From NCBI GenBank assembly GCA_038231155.1, contig JBBRLY010000013.1:68305-132304 (forward strand): a DNA stretch of 64,000 nucleotides. The letters are read 5' to 3'. The number at the start of each line of letters is the position of its first letter. Position 1 is the first letter of the stretch. Made by a program: the position numbers and the translations under genes. This DNA is from Candidatus Saccharimonadales bacterium. GTDB lineage: Bacteria > Patescibacteriota > Saccharimonadia > Saccharimonadales > JANWIN01. The notes below the pieces were generated by a model. That model saw nothing but the letters and a program-made list of their open reading frames with translations, ran no database searches and was not told the DNA's origin. This document shows positions 3,498 to 64,000 of this stretch, one piece after another.

Positions 3498-6113
3498 ATT
3501 GTAGCTTTTAAAAAAGGTTTTGACTTCCGCCAAAGCCCGCCTTTTCCAAGCAGATTGCCACTCAATCATTTCAATACCTTGTTTATAGGACCGGTCCAGG
3601 ACTGGATTCATAACTGAAATAAAAAACTTTCTATATTCTTTTAAAAACATTTCATCACTAAAACTACGCGCTACAAATGTCGGTGTTCTATAAAAACTGA
3701 GGTCTGTACCTAAATGCTTCTCCAACCATTGCCAGTTATTCTGTAGCCATTGCCAGGTCTGGTATTTGGCATGACGGTTAACTAAACTATAGGCGATCCA
3801 ATAAACTACATCCTGCAAGCGGACATCTTTTGACTTAATTAATGCCAAAGCCTTATCAATAAGTTCCGGTTGTTGAAAGTTGGTTAAGGCAGCTGATAAA
3901 GTTACTTTTTCCTCGCTTAACTTTGCGGCATTATGTAATTTTAGTAATTTATTGAATTCAGGTGCACTTCCCAACCTGGCAATTGTCCCAAAAACTATAC
4001 CCCGCAGGTCTGGGTCTAAGTCAGCACCACGCTTAATATTAGTAGTTGATGGTGTAGTCCTAAGTTCGCTACTAACATCTTCACTGTATTCAATTTTTTT
4101 AAACAGTTCTTGGCAACGTTCGATGACCAACAGTTCATCAGCTGAAGCCGCCAATCCAAGAATGATGGGACGCAATAGTCGATCGAAATGTGTGTCAGAT
4201 TGTTGGCGGTCCCAACCTAAACGCTTAAGTTGAAGGCTAACTAAATCACGTGTGAATGGTTTCATTTGTTCACGTAGCTCTTCGTCGTCCATGACTAAAC
4301 GTAGACTACCAATTACAGAGGCAATACTGTCCCATACAGCATAGTTATCTTCTGATCGGAAATTATCTAAAAAGTGAAGTACATCATCTGTATCCTGATG
4401 CCCAGCCTTGGCAGCCTCCAGCATATCGCAAAGCAAACCGATTCTATCTTCTACCTCTAAATGTCCGGTTTTTAATCGCTCACCTAATCGTTCTAAATGC
4501 GATGAGTTATAACTAACCCGGTAAAATCCACTTTGACTGCTATTTAGTTTAAATTGATGATTGTCTTTATGAGAGTATGATGCCCTAGACGCATTAAGTA
4601 GTTCATCAACACCTGCGATATTTGGTTTTAACGGGATAGGCCAGTTTTGATCCACTAGTTTACTGTGTTTCGGATTAATAAAGAATCGTTTTTGACTGAG
4701 CGAAATACTAGCTGCGTTAACTTCAGCACTAACTAAAGGGAAACCAGGTGCACTAGTCCACTTATGCATAAACTGTTTTACTGGTTTTTTTGAAGCTTCT
4801 TCAAGCGCGGCCCATAAATCTACTGTATCGGTGTTAGCATATGCGTGCTTTTTAAGATAATATTGAAGGCCAATTCGGAAAGCCTGAGGTCCGAGAAAGC
4901 TATGAAGCATATGAATTGCACTGGCGCCTTTGCTATAGCTAATAGCGTCAAATATAGTGCGGATTTCATCCGGATGATTAATGGCCACTTCAATCGAGTG
5001 AGTATGCTCTAAAGCGTCTAGTTTAAGACCTTGTTGCTGTTCATTAACTATAAATTGCGTCCACATTTGCCATTCCGGGAATAGACTGTCAACAGCTAAA
5101 TATTCAATCCAGCTGGCAAAACCTTCGTTTAACCATAAATCATTCCACCAACGCATTGTCACTAAATTGCCGAACCATTGGTGAGCAAGTTCGTGAGCGA
5201 CTACTAAAGCTACATATTGTTTGTTGCCCAGTGATGTATTCTTAGGGTCAACTAGTAATGCTTGTTCTCTAAAAGTTACACAACCCCAGTTTTCCATCGC
5301 ACCGGAAGAAAAGTCTGGTAAGGCAATGAGGTCGCATTTAGGCAAGGGATAATCTATACCGAAGTAATCATTATAAAAATCGAGGCATTTAATAGCTACA
5401 TCTAGGGCAAATTCCGTATACTTAACATTTTCTGGGGTGGCATAGCAGCGTACTGCGACTCCTTGTTTAGTTTTAGCTTCCAAAAAACCCAGCTTACCAT
5501 ATACAAAGGCCAGCAAATATGTAGACATATGAGGCGTAGTGGAGAAACCAACCTTTATTAAATTTTTATCAACTATTTCCTGACTTTCTATTGGTGTATT
5601 GGATATTACCGCTTCCGATTTTGGTACCGTTAAAGATAAGTCAAAGGTTGCCTTGGCTTCCGGTTCATCAATACATGGGAAAACCTCGCGGGCATGATGG
5701 CTTTCAAATTGGGTGGCAATAAGTTGGAGGTCTTTCCCTTTGTAATTAAAATTAGATGGATAAATACCATTCATTTGAGCCGTAATTTTACCGTTAAAAT
5801 TAAGACTAACGGTGTACTGACCAGGGTATAAAAGCTCAGAACTATGAATTCTTAATTCTTGAAAGTTTTTATGAGTATTAATACGCTTGATTTTGAGCTC
5901 ATGATCACCACGCTTATCATGAAACGTTAAATGTGCACTAGTTATATTTAAACCGCTTTGATGCATCGTCAGCCGCTTAGATGGTCGGTCAGTTTTTTGG
6001 CCAGCTATAATTACACTACCTTTAAAGGTCATATTAGCGCGGTTAGGGCTAAGCTCTAAAATATAATGCTTCGGCTGAAACTGACCGAACAGCCGAGTAA
6101 CTTTTTTAGCCAT
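3486..6113 (-). CDS. pepN: M1-family aminopeptidase N
   Basis: GAMENWG exopeptidase motif and HELAHQWFGNLVTMRWWNDLWLNEGFA (HExxH-x18-E). Confidence 0.9.
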   Translation of the reverse strand: MAKKVTRLFGQFQPKHYILELSPNRANMTFKGSVIIAGQKTDRPSKRLTMHQSGLNITSAHLTFHDKRGDHELKIKRINTHKNFQELRIHSSELLYPGQYTVSLNFNGKITAQMNGIYPSNFNYKGKDLQLIATQFESHHAREVFPCIDEPEAKATFDLSLTVPKSEAVISNTPIESQEIVDKNLIKVGFSTTPHMSTYLLAFVYGKLGFLEAKTKQGVAVRCYATPENVKYTEFALDVAIKCLDFYNDYFGIDYPLPKCDLIALPDFSSGAMENWGCVTFREQALLVDPKNTSLGNKQYVALVVAHELAHQWFGNLVTMRWWNDLWLNEGFASWIEYLAVDSLFPEWQMWTQFIVNEQQQGLKLDALEHTHSIEVAINHPDEIRTIFDAISYSKGASAIHMLHSFLGPQAFRIGLQYYLKKHAYANTDTVDLWAALEEASKKPVKQFMHKWTSAPGFPLVSAEVNAASISLSQKRFFINPKHSKLVDQNWPIPLKPNIAGVDELLNASRASYSHKDNHQFKLNSSQSGFYRVSYNSSHLERLGERLKTGHLEVEDRIGLLCDMLEAAKAGHQDTDDVLHFLDNFRSEDNYAVWDSIASVIGSLRLVMDDEELREQMKPFTRDLVSLQLKRLGWDRQQSDTHFDRLLRPIILGLAASADELLVIERCQELFKKIEYSEDVSSELRTTPSTTNIKRGADLDPDLRGIVFGTIARLGSAPEFNKLLKLHNAAKLSEEKVTLSAALTNFQQPELIDKALALIKSKDVRLQDVVYWIAYSLVNRHAKYQTWQWLQNNWQWLEKHLGTDLSFYRTPTFVARSFSDEMFLKEYRKFFISVMNPVLDRSYKQGIEMIEWQSAWKRRALAEVKTFFKSYNSSS

Positions 6114-11056: not shown

Positions 11057-12409
11057 ATGGTGGCTAAGAAAATTACAGCTAATTTTGTTTGTAGTAATTG
11101 CGGCGCGATCAGTAGCAGCTGGTCTGGCCGATGCTTTCAATGTGGGGAGTGGAATACGCTTGAAGAACAAATTGATGTTGGCAGAAGTGGTAATATTTCA
11201 GGCGGACAAATTTTAAAAGCTCAAAATGTTTCTACATTGGCTCAAACTGAAGGCTTAAAACGGATTTCAAGCGGTATAAATGAGGTCGATACGGTTCTTG
11301 GTGGCGGCTTTGTAGCTGGAAGTGTTAGTTTGATTGCCGGTCAACCCGGTATAGGTAAAAGTACATTACTGTTACAAATAGCCGATAACGTTGCTAAATC
11401 CCATCCGGTTTTATATATAAGTGGTGAAGAATCCGCTCATCAGATAGGTTTAAGAGCTCAGCGTTTAGGGGCTGGACAGCTAAAGCTAAAACTAGCCACA
11501 ACCAGTAGTGGAGACGATATTGCGGCTACGGTCGCTGCAAAAGATTACAAGCTAGTAATTGTCGACTCAATTCAAACCATAACGATTAATGCGATAGCCT
11601 CAAGTGCCGGTACTGTAAGTCAAATTACTAATGCTACTAGATTACTGGCAGCAGCGGCTAAACAATCTGGCACAGCCCTGGTTTTAGTTGGGCATGTTAC
11701 GAAGGAAGGATCAATTGCGGGACCGAAAGTTTTAGAGCACGCAGTGGACGTGGTTTTACAACTTGAAGGCGAACGTTACGGTGGTTTTAAAGTATTACGC
11801 GGAGAGAAAAATCGCTACGGATCAACTAATGAAGCCGGAATTTTTGAGATGGTAGATAATGGTCTCAAAGCCGTAGACAACCCTTCAGCGGCACTGCTTG
11901 CTGAAAGGCAAGTAAGCGATGGATCGGTAGTTTTGGCCACCATCGAAGGAACTCGCCCATTGCTTGTGGAGGTTCAGGCACTGGTTAATCGAACAAACTA
12001 CGGTTATCCTAAACGGGCAGCTAGCGGACTAGATTTAAATCGTCTAAATTTGCTTATTGCAATGCTTGAGCGTCGAACAAAACTAAATTTAGCTGATCAA
12101 GATGTTTATCTTAATATAGTTGGCGGAATTCGGATAAATGAACCGGCGGCAGATCTGGCAGTTTGTTTGGCAATTGCCAGCGCCACCAGAGGTCTTCAGC
12201 TAAAACAAAATGCTGTTGTTTTTGGTGAAGTAGGGTTAGCTGGTGAGATTCGCCATGTGCCTTATATTGATAAAAGATTAGCCGAGGCTAAAAAACTTGG
12301 TTTTTCTGGAGCCATTGGTCCTAAGTTAAAATCTACTAAAAAGCCGCCCCAACTTTTCGAGGTAAAAGATATTAGACAAGCCCTAGATTTGTATTTAGAA
12401 AAAGACTAA
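11057..12409 (+). CDS. radA: DNA repair protein RadA/Sms
   Basis: N-terminal Cys4 zinc finger (CSNCGA...CFQCGEW), Walker A GQPGIGKST, KNRYG motif and a Lon-like C-terminus. Confidence 0.9.
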   Translation: MVAKKITANFVCSNCGAISSSWSGRCFQCGEWNTLEEQIDVGRSGNISGGQILKAQNVSTLAQTEGLKRISSGINEVDTVLGGGFVAGSVSLIAGQPGIGKSTLLLQIADNVAKSHPVLYISGEESAHQIGLRAQRLGAGQLKLKLATTSSGDDIAATVAAKDYKLVIVDSIQTITINAIASSAGTVSQITNATRLLAAAAKQSGTALVLVGHVTKEGSIAGPKVLEHAVDVVLQLEGERYGGFKVLRGEKNRYGSTNEAGIFEMVDNGLKAVDNPSAALLAERQVSDGSVVLATIEGTRPLLVEVQALVNRTNYGYPKRAASGLDLNRLNLLIAMLERRTKLNLADQDVYLNIVGGIRINEPAADLAVCLAIASATRGLQLKQNAVVFGEVGLAGEIRHVPYIDKRLAEAKKLGFSGAIGPKLKSTKKPPQLFEVKDIRQALDLYLEKD

Positions 12410-21011: not shown

Positions 21012-21096
21012 GGGCGGGTGGCGAAATTGGTAGACGCACTAGCCTTAGGAGCTAGCGGAGCAATCCATGGAGGTTCAAGTCCTCTCCCGCCCACCA
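21012..21096 (+). tRNA. tRNA-Leu (anticodon TAG), CCA encoded
   Basis: Acceptor GGGCGGG/CCCGCCC, anticodon loop CTTAGGA, long variable arm, T-loop GGTTCAAGTCC, 3' ACCA. Confidence 0.85.
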
Positions 21097-59855: not shown

Positions 59856-59931
59856 GCCACCTTAGCTCAGTGGCTAGAGCAACACTTTTGTAAAGTGAAG
59901 GTCGTCGGTTCGAATCCGACAGGTGGCTCCA
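59856..59931 (+). tRNA. tRNA-Thr (anticodon TGT), CCA encoded
   Basis: Acceptor GCCACCT/AGGTGGC, anticodon loop TTTGTAA, T-arm GTCGG-TTCGAAT-CCGAC. Confidence 0.85.
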
Positions 59932-59960: not shown

Positions 59961-60046
59961 GCAGGGTTAGTGAAGCGGTCAAACACAACAGACTGTAAAT
60001 CTGTCGGCTTATGCCTTCGTAGGTTCGAATCCTACACCCTGCACCA
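59961..60046 (+). tRNA. tRNA-Tyr (anticodon GTA), long variable arm, CCA encoded
   Basis: Acceptor GCAGGGT/ACCCTGC, anticodon stem ACAGA/TCTGT with loop CTGTAAA, T-arm GTAGG-TTCGAAT-CCTAC. Confidence 0.85.
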
Positions 60047-60151
60047 CGGATTTTACCTCTGTTATTTTGTTAGAGCATTCGGTACGTTAGAACCCCGCAT
60101 GAGGGTTTTTAATTTAAAAGTACTAGAGTTGGGGTGAGGAGAAGGAATGAT

Positions 60152-60700
60152 ATGAAAAATAATCGTAAAGATACGAATGCATCCCCATTATTATCAGGTT
60201 CGTGTGCATGTGGAGCTTCAACGTTCAAAGCCAATGTAGTACCCAAAGAACGATTTATTTGTCACTGTCTCTATTGCCAGGCATTTGTTAAAAAATCTTA
60301 CACTGATGTAACAATATTTAAGGCTAGTGACGTTGAGTTAACAAACGAAAAATATGTTGTTTATGATAATCCTCGTTCTTTGCCCAAGGAGCTTATAAGG
60401 AATGATCTATTTGGATGGGGTAACCCAGCTCGTGGGCGATTTCGAAAATGCGCAAGTTTGGACCGTGGCCTTTGCACAAAATGTGGCACACCATATGTCG
60501 AAAAGATCGGAACTGGACCAGTAAAGTTTATATTCATACCTACGATTAACTTTGAAAATAAAACCAGCCTTCCGCCTGTGTCGCGCCATACTTTTTATAA
60601 TCTTCGTGTAGACGATATTGATGACAAGACACCAAAACTTAACAATTACGCAACGAGCCAATGGGGAATAATCAAAATGGTCACCAAAGTTCTTTTCTAA
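60152..60700 (+). CDS. GFA/CENP-V-like Cys-rich zinc protein
   Basis: GSCACGAS...FICHCLYCQ and CTKCGTP Cys clusters. SD GGTGAGGAGAAGG lies before ATG 60152. The track start GTG 60134 is less likely. Confidence 0.55.
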   Translation: MKNNRKDTNASPLLSGSCACGASTFKANVVPKERFICHCLYCQAFVKKSYTDVTIFKASDVELTNEKYVVYDNPRSLPKELIRNDLFGWGNPARGRFRKCASLDRGLCTKCGTPYVEKIGTGPVKFIFIPTINFENKTSLPPVSRHTFYNLRVDDIDDKTPKLNNYATSQWGIIKMVTKVLF

Positions 60701-60706
60701 AATGAT

Positions 60707-61279
60707 ATGAAAGAAAATACTTCTCGCCTCGAAGCATTCAGTGACGCGGTGTTCGCAATCATCATTACTATATCAGTGCTAAACATTCACGTTCCCGCAG
60801 ACGCATCATTACACTCGCTAGTTAAGCTTATCCCTGCTTTTTTGGTGTATCTCATAAGTTTCCAAACAGTAGGCACTTACTGGAATAACCACCACAATCT
60901 TTTACCGGCAAATACAAAAATTACAGCGTCGGTTATGTGGGCGAACCTTTTTCTACTCTTCTCACTTTCCCTTATACCTTTTAGTACTGGTTGGGTTGGT
61001 CAACATATAGGTAAGCCATGGCCAACAGCTTTTTATAGTTTTGTATTTCTTTTGTGCGCAATTTCCTCTCTTCTGCTGATATGGGCAATCAACGCACAAA
61101 AAATAAATAGGTCGAAATCTAGTCTTACTCTCAAAAATGATTGGAAAATCATAGCCACGTTTATTTTGAACTTCATCGGTGCATGTGTTGCAGTCTTTGT
61201 GCCGCTAATTGCATATATATGCATACTACTAGTTGCGTTCATATGGCTTATACCAGATAGACTTTCGAGCAAGTTGTAA
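60707..61279 (+). CDS. TMEM175/DUF1211-family membrane protein (putative K+ channel)
   Basis: RLEAFSDAVFAIIITISVLNI signature, YWNNHH, about 6 TM segments. Confidence 0.7.
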   Translation: MKENTSRLEAFSDAVFAIIITISVLNIHVPADASLHSLVKLIPAFLVYLISFQTVGTYWNNHHNLLPANTKITASVMWANLFLLFSLSLIPFSTGWVGQHIGKPWPTAFYSFVFLLCAISSLLLIWAINAQKINRSKSSLTLKNDWKIIATFILNFIGACVAVFVPLIAYICILLVAFIWLIPDRLSSKL

Positions 61280-61356
61280 TCAAAAGCTAATATAGCAAAA
61301 CGAGAATGTTATTTAAGTAAGAACTTTACTGCACCCCTGTTACTACGTTATACTGA

Positions 61357-61397
61357 CTTCGTAGCAAGGTTATAACATGTTTATCACCCTGCACCAC
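61357..61397 (+). repeat. R1: degenerate copy of the tRNA-Tyr 3' half
   Basis: CTTCGTAGCAAGGTTATAACATGTTTATCACCCTGCACCAC against tRNA CTTCGTAGGTTCGAATCCTACACCCTGCACCA. Confidence 0.7.
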
Positions 61398-61423
61398 AAC
61401 CATAAGCATGATATAGTTTGTTC

Positions 61424-61612
61424 ATGAACAAACTAGCCAATAAATTAATCAAGCTTGTTATTGCAGCCATTTTATGTTGGTTGATTGGTGTTGGAATACG
61501 CCTAGTTGCTTTCGTGCTTCCGATATCTCATTATTGGCAAACTGCCATTGCTGCCACCATTGCTCTATCTTTATTCATAATAATTGCATTTAAAATTAGT
61601 AGGAATGACTAA
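61424..61612 (+). CDS. 62-aa two-TM membrane peptide
   Basis: TGATATAGT (61409-61417) lies 6 nt before the ATG. Two hydrophobic helices. A terminator follows at 61666. Confidence 0.5.
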   Translation: MNKLANKLIKLVIAAILCWLIGVGIRLVAFVLPISHYWQTAIAATIALSLFIIIAFKISRND

Positions 61613-61616
61613 ATTA

Positions 61617-61650
61617 GGCAAGTTCTAACCTCAGCCATGATGCTGCACCA
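61617..61650 (+). repeat. R2: degenerate copy of the tRNA-Tyr 3' half
   Basis: GGCAAGTTCTAACCTCAGCCATGATGCTGCACCA. The T-loop-like GTTCTAACC matches R4, and ATGRTGCTGCACC matches R3. Confidence 0.55.
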
Positions 61651-61665
61651 AGCATAACCGTAATA

Positions 61666-61694
61666 ACCTCAGTAATATGAGGTATTTTTGTTTT
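61666..61694 (+). terminator. Rho-independent terminator
   Basis: ACCTCA-gtaata-TGAGGT followed by ATTTTTGTTTT. Confidence 0.65.
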
Positions 61695-61963
61695 ATGCTG
61701 TATGCTAAATCATAAATTGCTAATTCTTGCAATCCTAACTAAATTATAGGCCTATCTATAGGGATGTGATATTGAACACTGCAATATAAACACCAGGGTC
61801 CTAAAGTAGGAAGTGTTAGATTGTGGCGTAACATGGATAAAATCATGAAGTATTAAATGGAATACTTAAATTATATGAGAGGATAATTATTACAGAAATA
61901 CTTTCATTTGAAGAGTTTAAACAAGCAAATGCACGTACAATAGGGAATACTGCTATAGGAAAA

Positions 61964-62107
61964 ATGGGTAATCCAGGGGCTCTTGCAAATGTTGAGGAGA
62001 CCTTCATGCATTTAGAAGAAGAAGACGCAAGGGTTAGTGATTTAATAGCTAGAGTAGACAATTTTGACTTAAGAAGAGAGCCAGAAGATCTTCGTCCTAC
62101 TGCGTAA
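61964..62107 (+). CDS. possible small acidic ORF (47 aa from ATG; the frame is open from 61841)
   Basis: The plus frame reads ...ITEILSFEEFKQANARTIGNTAIGKMGNPGALANVEETFMHLEEEDARVSDLIARVDNFDLRREPEDLRPTA*. The 97-aa minus-strand track ORF (61843-62136) is Ser/Leu-rich and looks antisense. The strand call is uncertain. Confidence 0.3.
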   Translation: MGNPGALANVEETFMHLEEEDARVSDLIARVDNFDLRREPEDLRPTA

Positions 62108-62280
62108 AGAAGAAAAGCGTATCGCCCTCTAGGCACATAGTTATTCTTAGCTCGGTTCCAAGTGACAGCTAAATTATCCCTCCATCATCCCAGTTCTTCG
62201 TACAATTGGTGCCAATTTTGTTGGATTAGCTCCACTAGAACAAAAGCATTATCGTAAAGTGCTAATTCTTTGTTTATTTT

Positions 62281-62320
62281 GGCTCTAATTCCATCAATGG
62301 TGCTGCACCGCGGATTTTAC
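62281..62320 (+). repeat. R3: degenerate copy of the tRNA-Tyr 3' end plus its 10-nt downstream flank
   Basis: GGCTCTAATTCCATCAATGGTGCTGCACCGCGGATTTTAC against tRNA end plus flank GGTTCGAATCCTACACCCTGCACCACGGATTTTAC. Confidence 0.65.
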
Positions 62321-62371
62321 AAACATTGTAATTTAGTCAGCATTGAGTTCCAAATGTCGGACTGTAACTAT

Positions 62372-62400
62372 AAAAAGACCTCCATTGCAGGAGGCCTTTT
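62372..62400. terminator. bidirectional-looking terminator hairpin (serves the minus-strand ORF 62413-62619)
   Basis: AAAAAGA-CCTCC-attgca-GGAGG-CCTTTT. Confidence 0.6.
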
Positions 62401-62412
62401 CCGACACACTGA

Positions 62413-62619
62413 TTAATATCGATTTCGGAGTCTTTGAGCAATATGCCTAAAGTGTCGTCTCATATCAAAACTATTTTCTAGTAGTTCAACCTTGAGTTCT
62501 GGCGGTGTATCGCTAGAGATATAATCCGACGGTTCATGGGCGTTATTTAAATATTGCTCAAAGAAGACTTTTGAGTGTTTTTGCTGTTTGTTCTTTATCG
62601 CCTTTGTTGAATGCGACAT
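62413..62619 (-). CDS. 68-aa hypothetical protein
   Basis: ATG at 62619 preceded by SD AAAGGTGGAG. MSHSTKAIKNKQQKHSKVFFEQYL... The track start (TTG 62685) is less likely. Confidence 0.5.
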   Translation of the reverse strand: MSHSTKAIKNKQQKHSKVFFEQYLNNAHEPSDYISSDTPPELKVELLENSFDMRRHFRHIAQRLRNRY

Positions 62620-62844
62620 ACTCCACCTTTCGTTATTTGCCTTATAGAACAAGCCTAACAGTTTAGGTAACACCCTTCTTCCCAATGATGTGCGTAATAA
62701 TGTCAGCTCACTACCTATAGCATAGTTATACTCCTTTCAATAGTCTGTGCGTGTTATCACGGGCTTTTAACTTAAGTGTAATTGGAGTAGCCTTGATTCT
62801 TGCTTCAGTAAGTGCTCCCCGTCACATAGTTAAGTGAACCAATA

Positions 62845-63594
62845 ATGACCAAGGCAACACTTTTGCGTGAGAGTATCCCTACGAATTTTACATTGCCAAG
62901 TAGTATACTTAATCTCATGACTAAAGACATTCTAGCGGTTATGCCCACTGAAAAAGCTAAGGAAGAAGACTTTGACACACACTTTAGTGATGGACTGATT
63001 TTGAAGTATTCAAAAGGAGATACCATTATTAATGGTTTAGATGAACCGTAAGGTGTCTTTATTATTAAGAAAGGCTTCGTCAAAGCCTATACTATAACTA
63101 AATCAGGTCAAGAAAATCTTTTGTTGGTTCACGACACTGGAGAGTTTATACCCCTGCTCTGGGCTTTAGACGGCTCGCATTCAGATGGGCTATATTATGA
63201 AGCAATGTCCGACGTCACGGTATTGAAAACTTCAAAGGGAAAACTGCTATCCCTCATGAATGATAATATCTGGTTATCTCAGGAAATTCTAAAACAGGCA
63301 GTGCACATTATCACAAATTACTATCAAAGAATTCAAGCTCTAGAGTTTCGTACAGCTCGTCAAAGAATTGTTGCTGAGCTATTAAACCTTACGGAGATGT
63401 TTGGTAAAATGAATGGTAAAATGGTCCTTATAGAAGCCCCTGTAACTCATCAAGATATAGCTAACTCAATTAATATGACCCGCGAGACCGCAAGTCGAGC
63501 ATTAGGCTTACTCTTTGTGGAAGAACTTTTGAGTCAAAACGAACACTTTCTTACAATTTTAGATTTGCCAAAGTTACAAAAAGAGCTTGGCTAG
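62845..63594 (+). pseudogene. Crp/Fnr-family transcriptional regulator interrupted by one in-frame TAA (codon 69)
   Basis: Track ORFs 62845-63051 and 63121-63594 share a frame. The only interruption is TAA at 63049-63051. The 23 codons after it (GVFIIKKGFVKAYTITKSGQENL) complete the cNMP-binding beta-roll. The HTH HQDIANSINMTRETASRAL is intact. Confidence 0.7.
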
Positions 63595-63740
63595 TAATAA
63601 AAAGACCCCCTATTAGTATGCCAAGGGTCTAGTGACATGCTGCTTAATAATTTGATACGGGCTACCATGACCAAGTTCTATTAAACGTTAAAACATACAA
63701 ACGAGCTGTGCGATGCGTCACGTCACAAGAAGCATCACCA

Positions 63741-63774
63741 ACCTATTACCCCTTGGAATAATAGGTATATTTTT
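63741..63774 (+). terminator. AT-rich hairpin plus T-run (weak terminator candidate)
   Basis: ACCTATTA-ccccttggaa-TAATAGGT followed by ATATTTTT. Confidence 0.35.
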
Positions 63775-63806
63775 CCTCATACTATAGTAAAAGCACTGTG
63801 TTAATT

Positions 63807-63848
63807 TAGTAGTAAGGTTCTAACCTCGTCGATCACCCTGCACCACGG
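63807..63848 (+). repeat. R4: degenerate copy of the tRNA-Tyr 3' half
   Basis: TAGTAGTAAGGTTCTAACCTCGTCGATCACCCTGCACCACGG. It closely parallels R1 and ends with the tRNA-flank-like CACGG. Confidence 0.7.
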
Positions 63849-63894
63849 TTTAGAACGTGTATTTAGCAAGATATTTCTAGTAATATAGCTAGGT

Positions 63895-64000
63895 ATGAGC
63901 AAGATAAAAGTCACATGCGGAATTGCGATTTCAATTGATGGATTTGTCGCAGGACTTAATCAAACCTTTGAAAAACCATTTGGTGATATACCTAAAAACT
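63895..64000 (+). CDS. 5' end of a RibD_C / dihydrofolate-reductase-like family protein (3'-truncated by window edge)
   Basis: MSKIKVTCGIAISIDGFVAGLNQTFEKPFGD matches the N-terminal beta-strand/ligand motif of this family. TAATAT (63881-63886) lies 8 nt before the ATG. Confidence 0.5.
   Translation, partial: MSKIKVTCGIAISIDGFVAGLNQTFEKPFGDIPKN

Follow-up and report, generated by a model that had tools for sequence, protein, structure and literature searches.

A 35-bp motif family at tRNA 3' ends of Saccharibacteria and what looks like an integron-like gene-capture system

What are the four short repeats that follow the tRNA-Tyr gene near the end of a 64,000-nt stretch of a Candidatus Saccharimonadales genome (contig JBBRLY010000013.1, hereafter the window), and what do they say about the small genes lying between them? 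Saccharibacteria are obligate epibionts with genomes of about 1 Mb or less, and their gain and exchange of accessory genes is poorly understood. An earlier note on this DNA described the repeats, R1 to R4, as degenerate copies of the tRNA-Tyr 3' half that punctuate a string of mini-cassettes. The tRNA 3' part (60015-60046) and the repeats (R1, 61357-61397; R2, 61617-61650; R3, 62281-62320; R4, 63807-63848) were all confirmed, but the repeats are better described as something other than tRNA copies. With a probability that we put at about 0.62, R1-R4 are the conserved left arm and core (P-O) of the att site of Saccharibacteria large serine recombinase (LSR) elements that integrate at tRNA 3' ...CCA ends, and the array is a set of LSR-dependent, recombinase-less cassettes served in trans. 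Compared with integron-like arrays, serine-integrase elements and tRNA-anchored islands, this looks like an undescribed integron-like gene-capture system, and the chance that it is a distinct system is substantial. In the literature, of which coverage was incomplete, no account of the motif, of the arrays or of tRNA-end-targeting LSR elements in Saccharibacteria was found.

The 35-nt motif family

How similar are the repeats to the tRNA? On the plus strand of the window, CTGCACC occurs at 60039, 61329, 61389, 61643, 62303 and 63838, and just once in the rest of the window (60 kb). The 13-mer CACCCTGCACCAC occurs three times (tRNA, R1 and R4), TGCTGCACC twice (R2 and R3), and CGGATTTTAC twice (in the flanks of the tRNA and of R3). 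The repeats were aligned by the Smith-Waterman method with the tRNA-Tyr 3' half plus its flank and compared with 2000 shuffles, the control that the earlier note had proposed. R1 (z=6.6; 1 of 2000 shuffles as high), R3 (z=10.1; 0 of 2000) and R4 (z=9.7; 0 of 2000) stood out from the shuffles, whereas R2 was not significantly tRNA-like beyond its 8-nt core (z=2.3; 74 of 2000), because only this core is common with the tRNA. The proposed division into two subfamilies, R1/R4 (ATCACC-CTGCACCA) and R2/R3 (ATGRTG-CTGCACC), is real, and both subfamilies recur in other genomes.

Related loci (labelled L here, as are metagenome contigs) were recruited via the TPR protein encoded next to the tRNA genes, and the closest 80 are nearly all from metagenome-assembled genomes of Saccharibacteria/Patescibacteria. 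The motif was first traced from the sequence that precedes every CYGCACC downstream of tRNA-Tyr in these genomes. Its consensus, from 162 non-redundant copies, is A-R-n-A-n-R-GTTCTRAC-YTYR-nnn-A-nn-A-Y-S-CTGCACCA. Across these copies, the A located 10 nt before the terminal A is nearly invariant, the A located 13 nt before it is invariant (part of the set having been chosen with a pattern that fixes this base), and the information content drops to zero right after the CCA. The motif overlaps with tRNA-Tyr only in the last 8-13 nt and in a T-loop-like box displaced by 5 bp: GTTCTRAC lies 13 nt from CTGCACCA in the motif, and GTTCGAAT lies 8 nt from CTGCACCA in the tRNA.

A hidden Markov model (HMM) was built from 22 seed copies of related Saccharibacteria and run with nhmmer over 1.27 Mb. 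The 32 matches at E<0.01 were all located downstream of tRNA-Tyr and on the same strand, wherever tRNA-Tyr was present on the locus; the upstream flanks, about 500 kb in all, and the window's other 60 kb gave none. The model recovered all four repeats on the plus strand as 35-nt spans ending at CCA, namely R1 at 61362-61396 (E=2.8e-3, outside the seed; long GGTTATAAC subtype with a 1-nt spacer deletion), R2 at 61616-61650 (E=7.3e-7, seed copy), R3 at 62276-62310 (E=1.3e-3, seed copy; core mutated to CCG, CTGCACCG) and R4 at 63811-63845 (E=3.3e-8, seed copy). A scan for further copies beyond position 64000 had been proposed; in the window plus 7.3 kb past it, about 71 kb of genome in all, the HMM found nothing beyond R1-R4. 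Real tRNA-Tyr genes do not match the HMM.

The motif is not confined to this genome. A strict pattern, GTTCTRACYTYNNNNANNANNCTGCACCA, which recovers 9 of the 32 known copies, was found in 83 metagenome contigs versus about 4 expected by chance. By HMM, the metagenome arrays hold 5-8 copies per stretch, and 11 over two stretches of one 62-kb contig, with all copies within any contig on one strand. Arrays were also found behind tRNA-Arg (...GGGTGCACCA), tRNA-Gly (...CCCGCACCA) and tRNA-Leu (...CGCGCACCA). Overall, the motif marks a hypervariable locus in roughly one in four of the related species studied, as well as in dozens of contigs from metagenomes, and may therefore mark one route of gene flux in the group; the 35-bp HMM is a ready marker for finding such arrays.

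Could the repeats still be ordinary decayed tRNA-Tyr 3' direct repeats, left by classical tRNA-targeting islands? The similarity of R1, R3 and R4 to the tRNA 3' half fits this explanation, and so do true 22-27-nt duplications of the tRNA-Tyr segment from T-loop to CCA, located 117-190 nt downstream of the gene in L034 (+137), L053 (+189), L040 (+117) and L007 (+178). The motif, however, holds TCTRAC and 13-nt spacer positions that are absent from the tRNA, and does so across 162 copies and many genomes; tRNA genes fail its HMM; and it stands behind non-Tyr tRNAs as well. Unlike a classical tyrosine-integrase island, this locus has only 8-13 nt in common with the tRNA, and no integrase is encoded in the window. 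The decayed-repeat explanation is therefore very improbable. Since the motif keeps features that the tRNA lacks, the repeats are not eroded tRNA copies; judged by this pattern of conservation, R1-R4 are members of a distinct motif under its own constraint. The 22-27-nt duplications, repeats of a second kind and not copies of the 35-nt motif, suggest that tRNA-Tyr is also used by a further class of element, one that crosses over in the T-loop.

Cassettes and their boundaries

What lies between the motif copies? The ancestral layout in related genomes is TPR - tRNA-Thr1 - tRNA-Tyr - tRNA-Thr2, with an orthologue of the TPR gene preceding tRNA-Thr1 in most related loci. The interval between tRNA-Tyr and tRNA-Thr2 varies from 1 bp to 8.4 kb among 57 related genomes, and four loci (L017, L041, L043 and L049), with a gap of only 1-15 nt, represent the empty site. 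The cargo in this interval is almost all non-homologous across genomes, the 102 open reading frames (ORFs) of at least 150 aa falling into 86 clusters.

Between successive motif ends, 73 non-redundant units were delimited, with a median length of 496 bp and a minimum of about 230 bp for those bearing an ORF. The main (longest) ORF lies on the tRNA strand in 61 of the 63 units of at most 1.2 kb (p=4e-16) and covers 81% of the cassette, with its stop codon a median of 36 nt before the CCA, just ahead of the motif. The products include NUDIX, Ham1 and NADAR proteins, kinases, a hydrolase and a PIN toxin with an antitoxin-sized partner, along with many proteins without a family match. A cassette is a compact unit consisting of a 5' end, often with an RF segment (see below) and a terminator/promoter, one or more genes on the tRNA strand, and the 35-bp motif ending in CTGCACCA.

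Comparison of arrays shows where such units begin and end. The 361-bp cassette at L177 338-699 is 97.2% identical over its whole length to that at L238 2994-3355, whereas both flanks are at random level (58-60%); the homology starts right after the preceding CTGCACCA and stops at the cassette's own CTGCACCA, and three further pairs behave alike. Judged by these alignments, homology between arrays comes in whole cassettes, bounded at CCA|. The extended site of R1 is 82.6% identical over 92 bp to a site in L026, which there stands behind a cation-efflux gene, not TMEM175. Conserved 5' segments of three classes, RF1, RF2 and RF3, abut the CCA in many unrelated cassettes; RF1 and RF3 hold an inverted copy of the GTTCTRAC box, and RF2 is AATCGCTTATGC or its inverse. 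In L023, L045, L069, L079, L015 and metagenome contigs, the 47-nt RF1 segment that follows tRNA-Tyr in the window likewise stands behind the tRNA or behind an internal copy of the motif.

The earlier note had left a choice between a decayed pile-up of islands and a cassette-capture hot spot served in trans, and had proposed a comparison across relatives. In that comparison, the cargo varied and homology ended at the repeat boundary. The hot spot is now well supported by the variable interval, the compact co-oriented units and the shuffling at boundaries, although not with repeats derived from the tRNA. The main rival is a graveyard, in which the units are the surviving distal ends (last cargo gene plus attR) of full LSR or other integrative elements that lost their recombinase and replication modules, so that the cassettes were never mobile alone. 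It would agree with the signs of decay in the window array, where the core of R3 reads CCG and a crp-like gene is a pseudogene. Whole cassettes recur across arrays, however, with homology running from the preceding CCA to their own CCA, and random deletions would not give such precise common left ends. RF segments abutting the CCA in many unrelated cassettes, units down to 228-360 bp that each have a motif of their own, within arrays of 7-11, and the lack of any LSR remnant in the window array also argue against it. A graveyard is an unlikely explanation, but the most credible of those that compete with LSR-served cassettes.

Presence/absence polymorphism within one population was not seen: near-identical contig pairs had the same arrays, and exact-protein look-ups placed the window genome in essentially one sample. 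The arrays of L215 and L223 were 99.8-99.9% identical except for a 42-bp tandem repeat inside one cassette, which differs in copy number (L215 about 3522-3732; L223 about 1689-1857).

Large serine recombinases and a proposed mechanism

Which enzyme could move these cassettes? The earlier note found no integrase in the units, and indeed neither the window nor the motif-bearing arrays hold a recombinase. A public contig that matches the window exactly over 4,099 bp adds 13.7 kb downstream, and gene calls show no recombinase in the window or this extension (the Pfam check excludes 35.7-39.1 kb), so that the proposed scan beyond position 64000 yielded none either. The note drew on integrases that target and duplicate a tRNA 3' end, which classically would be of the tyrosine type; the likely recombinase is instead an LSR. 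The only recombinases encoded in the tRNA-Tyr gaps of related loci are two LSRs (L056 and L078), with the 3' ends of their genes facing the tRNA-Tyr 3' end. The 3' end of the LSR gene abuts a tRNA in L056, L078, L254, L252/L253 and L257. A tblastn search with the LSR showed it abutting motif copies in L230 and L197, found remnants of it behind motif copies (L194/L214) or a core remnant (L033), and recovered L176. The protein combines a Resolvase, a Recombinase and a Zn_ribbon_recom domain and resembles the phrog_95 integrase (7e-72), and the family comprises 716 homologues at E<1e-30, many of them on contigs of 6.5-8 kb.

Free forms of the element were also found. L176, a 7,111-nt contig with an LSR gene, is considered a circle because of its 127-nt exact terminal repeat, and L255 and L256, from two samples, are both 7,040 nt long, 100% identical and circularly permuted. 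The junction in L255/L256 reads motif (HMM E=1.3e-7)-CTGCACCA|TTTTGTACGTAGAGCCTCTTCGGAGGC...-LSR 3' end and, by its composition, is the attP of the free element. Integrated copies were found at tRNA-Tyr (L254), tRNA-Arg (L252/L253), tRNA-Trp (L257) and a tRNA with a group I intron (L251). In the last case, the integrated element is complete (about 9.4 kb) and has a motif copy at its end; behind it stands one extra cassette, which carries another copy. The two distal motif cores are CCCCACCA, matching the ...GCCCCACCA end of that tRNA; the 8-nt core appears to change to match the target where the target differs.

These junctions also bear on whether the motif acts as RNA. Since it always stands just past a stop codon, on the coding strand, and ends in ...ACCA, it could be a regulatory or RNA-level element (a 3'-UTR, processing or terminator signal mimicking the tRNA acceptor end) that travels with accessory genes. 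RNAalifold on the 162 copies, however, gave no conserved hairpin or other secondary structure, and no covariation beyond mutual-information pairs of which the top ones are neighbouring columns. The motif is absent from about 560 kb of other sequence of the same genomes, its core co-varies with the target tRNA, it is the closing junction of circular elements, and homology blocks stop exactly at it. This is the least probable of the alternatives weighed here, slightly behind decayed tRNA repeats. A local GGTT-CT-AACC palindrome, considered as a possible attC-like hairpin or RNA structure, was too short and by eye had no clear compensatory pattern.

Under the preferred reading, an LSR whose gene lies at another place in the genome or on a transient episome would act in trans, inserting circularised cassettes at the 3' end of the tRNA and perhaps also excising them, with a crossover within or at the edge of the common GCACCA. 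The tRNA-Tyr 3' end would serve as the anchor of the array and the attB-type left half. In attB of serine integrases, the zinc-ribbon-domain (ZD) motif is 5 bp closer to the centre than it is in attP (PMC3783163). The 5-bp shift of the box between tRNA and motif mirrors this ZD shift (PMC3783163), and the attB-type ZD motif may be the tRNA's T-loop box, at 8 nt from the core, while the attP-type ZD motif may be GTTCTRAC of the 35-nt motif, at 13 nt from it.

How far does this agree with known LSR systems such as A118, Bxb1 and phiC31? As in these systems, the recombinase gene lies beside attP on a circular element (L176 and L255/L256, not the window), and the att site is short with a 5-bp box shift between element and host site, predicted from sequence to correspond to the ZD motif (PMC3783163). 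LSR sites of about 40-50 bp have imperfect dyad symmetry around a non-palindromic central dinucleotide; junctions of the RF3 type may compare with this, being imperfectly palindromic over about 57 bp (a count by hand gave 16 of 19 informative outer positions). Unlike in these systems, the target is a tRNA 3' CCA end, a target typical of tyrosine integrases, the partners have 6-8 nt of identity rather than a dinucleotide, and recombinase-less single-gene cassettes with a P arm stack, which a rule of attP x attB only does not predict.

Several points weigh against the LSR-served reading. Canonical LSRs recombine attP x attB only and not attP x attL (PMC3783163), a rule that holds without a directionality factor. 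Stacked arrays imply insertion beside an attL-like junction, and the rule does not explain how a tRNA whose flank is already of P' type could receive further insertions. A recognisable conserved right flank is present at only about 25% of junctions and the inverted box at only about 10%, so most cassettes would lack a symmetric P' half-site. The symmetry centre lies at the CCA end in RF3-type junctions and about 5 nt further in for the LSR circle, so the crossover position is not fixed. The arrays behind tRNA-Arg, tRNA-Gly and tRNA-Leu keep the core CTGCACCA, with only GCACCA common with those tRNAs. Neither an LSR gene nor a remnant was found by gene calls and tblastn in the 64-kb window or the 13.7 kb downstream of it, and all of the support comes from sequence comparison. 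Two points count for the graveyard: loss of the P' side would restore an attB-like tRNA junction and so solve the attL problem, and the LSR pseudogene remnants directly after motif copies (L194/L214) and after a core remnant (L033) are what such loss would leave.

Could a tyrosine recombinase act in trans instead, either of the integron type (IntI/attC) or in the manner of Xer-dependent IMEX or pdif modules? GCACCA would then be a 6-8-bp overlap, and the one-sided conservation would reflect a single-strand exchange resolved by replication. Identity segments of 6-8 nt are typical of the overlap regions of tyrosine recombinases. The architecture, too, resembles that of integron arrays, including CALINs (attC-cassette clusters without an integrase), which likewise lack a recombinase in cis: tandem, compact, co-oriented and mostly single-ORF cassettes each carry a family-conserved site at the 3' end, conservation is limited to one side of each junction, as the integron crossover lies at the 3' edge of the site, and the contents are very diverse, mostly of unknown function, and include a toxin-antitoxin pair (PIN plus an antitoxin-sized ORF). 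The same pattern of small recombinase-less modules, short conserved bounding sites and a recombinase encoded elsewhere is known from Xer-dependent IMEX and Acinetobacter pdif modules.

The differences are, however, considerable. No tyrosine recombinase, IntI included, turned up in the window, in scans of all gap ORFs of at least 270 aa in the 58 related loci, in the families that four or more of the 150 ORFs flanking metagenome arrays have in common, or on the circular elements. None was found among the matches listed in a Pfam census of the 102 gap ORFs, the only search covering ORFs of 150-270 aa, in which a small recombinase could be missed. The only recombinase physically joined to the motif is the LSR. 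The motif is a linear 35-bp site without an internal inverted repeat or attC hairpin (alifold), without R''/R' cores or a GTTRRRY/RYYYAAC pair and without GTTRRRY at its 3' edge; the anchor is a tRNA 3' end rather than attI beside intI; and by eye the cassettes appear to have their own terminator- and promoter-like signals. IMEX and pdif sites are dif-like 28-bp XerC/XerD sites in alternating orientation, whereas the motif has no dif similarity and no 11-6-11 arrangement, occurs in direct orientation and is anchored to a tRNA, in a leading-strand region of co-oriented ribosomal-protein and rpo operons and not at the terminus. A tyrosine recombinase is thus improbable, more so than a graveyard.

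If elements of this kind are LSR elements, what is their closest relative among tRNA-anchored islands? The tycheposons of Prochlorococcus integrate at tRNA genes of a streamlined genome and combine integration, replication (primase/helicase) and cargo modules; 27 of 937 use an LSR, and successive integrations push older elements into an island holding partial tRNAs (bioRxiv 10.1101/2020.12.28.424599). In L056, the gene next to the LSR encodes a primase/helicase, so that LSR, primase/helicase and cargo suggest an integration-replication-cargo layout like that of tycheposons; the autonomous element of relatives fits this scheme, and the window units carry no hallmark genes. Tycheposon islands, in a different phylum, are marked by partial tRNA copies and degraded integrases, and the passages of that preprint that were searched mention neither a conserved non-tRNA 35-bp site nor arrays of 0.2-0.7-kb single-ORF units (bioRxiv 10.1101/2020.12.28.424599).

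A wider proposal can be put forward only tentatively, as somewhat less probable than the alternative that it fails: Saccharibacteria, and possibly other Patescibacteria, may possess an integron analogue based on the LSR of a 7-kb episome, which would capture and shuffle, at tRNA 3' CCA ends, single-gene cassettes carrying only a 35-bp half-att site, with a tRNA half-site that is reusable after each insertion, and an LSR family that escapes the attP x attB-only rule. If the LSR link holds, it would constitute a second, mechanistically independent way of building cassette arrays besides integrons. It would also be a case of serine integrases that target tRNA 3' ends by way of a short, well-defined site, and of a natural LSR possibly accepting repeated insertions at one landing site, which would matter for genome engineering and for work on Saccharibacteria, whose genetics has newly become tractable.

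Some features of the LSR elements were observed in passing. The LSR reading frame runs through the att site (L255 4978-6624; L254 10001-11635; L056), its last codons overlapping the motif in the circle and the antisense of the tRNA in integrated copies; therefore, the C-terminal tail would change on integration. Conservation among LSR homologues ends near residue 492. The group I intron in the LSR-target tRNA gene of L251 (Rfam RF00028, 73.6 bits) is located at 11633-11823 on the minus strand, and ARAGORN misses this tRNA. A 1,263-aa DUF4365 - TPR - PIN (PIN-TPR-GreABC) protein of defence-like character is encoded a few genes from the LSR in L078 (15720-19508) and L254 (3346-7137) and may be element cargo. 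A viral origin of the motif was considered and rejected: a pattern scan of IMG/VR gave 82 single matches, all with low HMM scores and, by a rough estimate that was not tool-computed, no more than chance, and an LSR query against viral contigs found no relatives.

The window array and its surroundings

What does the window itself contain? The tRNA-Tyr(GTA) gene, with encoded CCA, is located at 59961..60046 on the plus strand (ARAGORN, Rfam) and ends in ...GTTCGAAT-N8-CTGCACCA. It is preceded on the same strand by tRNA-Thr(TGT) at 59856..59931 (ARAGORN; Rfam tRNA, 69 bits), the first of the conserved Thr-Tyr pair. What follows appears to be a tandem array of at least four recombinase-less cassettes, and then further cargo up to tRNA-Thr2.

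Cassette 1 (60047..61396, plus strand) begins with a conserved RF1 segment, CGGATTTTACnTCTGTTA..TAGAGCATT..GTACGTTAGAAC, at 60047..60093 on the same strand, which holds inverted copies of the GTTCTRAC box and is followed by a terminator-like hairpin at about 60090-60110. The GFA-like and TMEM175-like genes that had been recognised from their translations, at 60134-60700 and 60707-61279, were both supported by Pfam (8.8e-13 and 2.7e-27). Cassette 2 (61397..61650, plus strand; 254 bp) carries a 64-aa ORF with two transmembrane segments at 61418-61612, followed by R2. Cassette 3 (61651..62310, plus strand; 660 bp) has only small ambiguous ORFs, one of 47 aa on the plus strand (61964-62107) and one of 97 aa on the minus strand, followed by R3.

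Cassette 4 (62311..63845, plus strand) has an RF1-like start (CGGATTTTAC...), a minus-strand ORF of 68-90 aa (62413-62619/62685), a crp/fnr-like pseudogene and R4. The pseudogene (62845-63594; Pfam HTH_Crp_2, 9.4e-13) was correctly recognised as such in the earlier note, being one frame interrupted by a single in-frame TAA at 63049-63051. Between the start of the cassette and the minus-strand ORF lies a GC-rich hairpin at 62378-62400 (GACCTCCATTGCAGGAGGCC), with A-runs and T-runs beside it, which resembles a bidirectional terminator and is the source of weak Rfam Phe_leader matches on both strands. Apart from these matches, the Rfam search of the variable region found nothing beyond the two tRNAs.

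A fifth unit starts at 63846..64000 on the plus strand with a RibD_C-family gene that begins at 63897 and leaves the window (Pfam on the extended contig). This unit is 74.5% identical over 648 bp to cargo of L062, with homology from 6 nt past the CCA of R4 and a decayed motif at the equivalent place in L062. The 3' flanks in the window are RF1 after the tRNA, the inverse RF2 type after R1 and R2, and a diverged RF1 after R3. With the CCG core of R3 and the crp pseudogene, the window array looks partly decayed and may be inactive.

The variable region does not end at 63848, as had been proposed, but runs on to tRNA-Thr2 at a window-equivalent position of about 66.6 kb (66582-66657; L001 6681-6756). 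Its suspected AT-richness is real but modest, the GC content being 0.381 versus 0.407 +/- 0.013 for windows of equal size (about the 4th percentile). The GC skew flattens after about 57 kb, which had raised the idea of a Xer/dif site and terminus here; since the flanking operons continue on the same strand, the flattening is better explained by foreign DNA. The extension downstream encodes RibD_C, DUF2127 and amidotransferase proteins, tRNA-Thr2 (inverted), rpmG, GDH, tRNA-Trp, a kinase, YgjP, a histidine kinase, secE, nusG and rplK/A. Window positions up to 60 kb belong to the core genome, with rpoB/C, the S10-spc-alpha ribosomal operons, SecY, RpoA, TrpRS, a pseudouridine synthase, HolB and the TPR protein; the stretch at 35.7-39.1 kb, outside the Pfam check, probably holds fusA and tuf, judged by position. 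In the same part of the window, two ORFs of 151 and 252 aa that match no Pfam family lie behind tRNA-Leu(TAG) (21012-21096), on the opposite strand and up to 22390; this region could be another small insertion site, though one without a motif copy.

The surroundings of the tRNA pair may also be subject to rearrangement. In about 14 of the 57 related loci (L007, L010, L011, L025, L026, L032, L045, L046, L058, L059, L061, L069, L074 and L080), the whole tRNA-Thr1 - tRNA-Tyr - cargo block is turned round with respect to the TPR gene and tRNA-Thr2, and tRNA-Thr2 of the window genome itself sits on the opposite strand. Assemblies end within or just after tRNA-Thr1/tRNA-Tyr in L004, L005, L019, L030, L036, L038, L039 and L054, and two Logan contigs of the window genome (SRR24807096_3694 and SRR24807096_125951) both break inside tRNA-Thr1, at about position 59902 of the window. 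Such breaks fit strain heterogeneity or rearrangement at the locus. In four species (L018, L035, L065 and L079), a conserved module of about 165 nt directly follows tRNA-Tyr and consists of a terminator hairpin and a segment ending in a decayed ATCCTACACCCC... copy of the tRNA 3' end.

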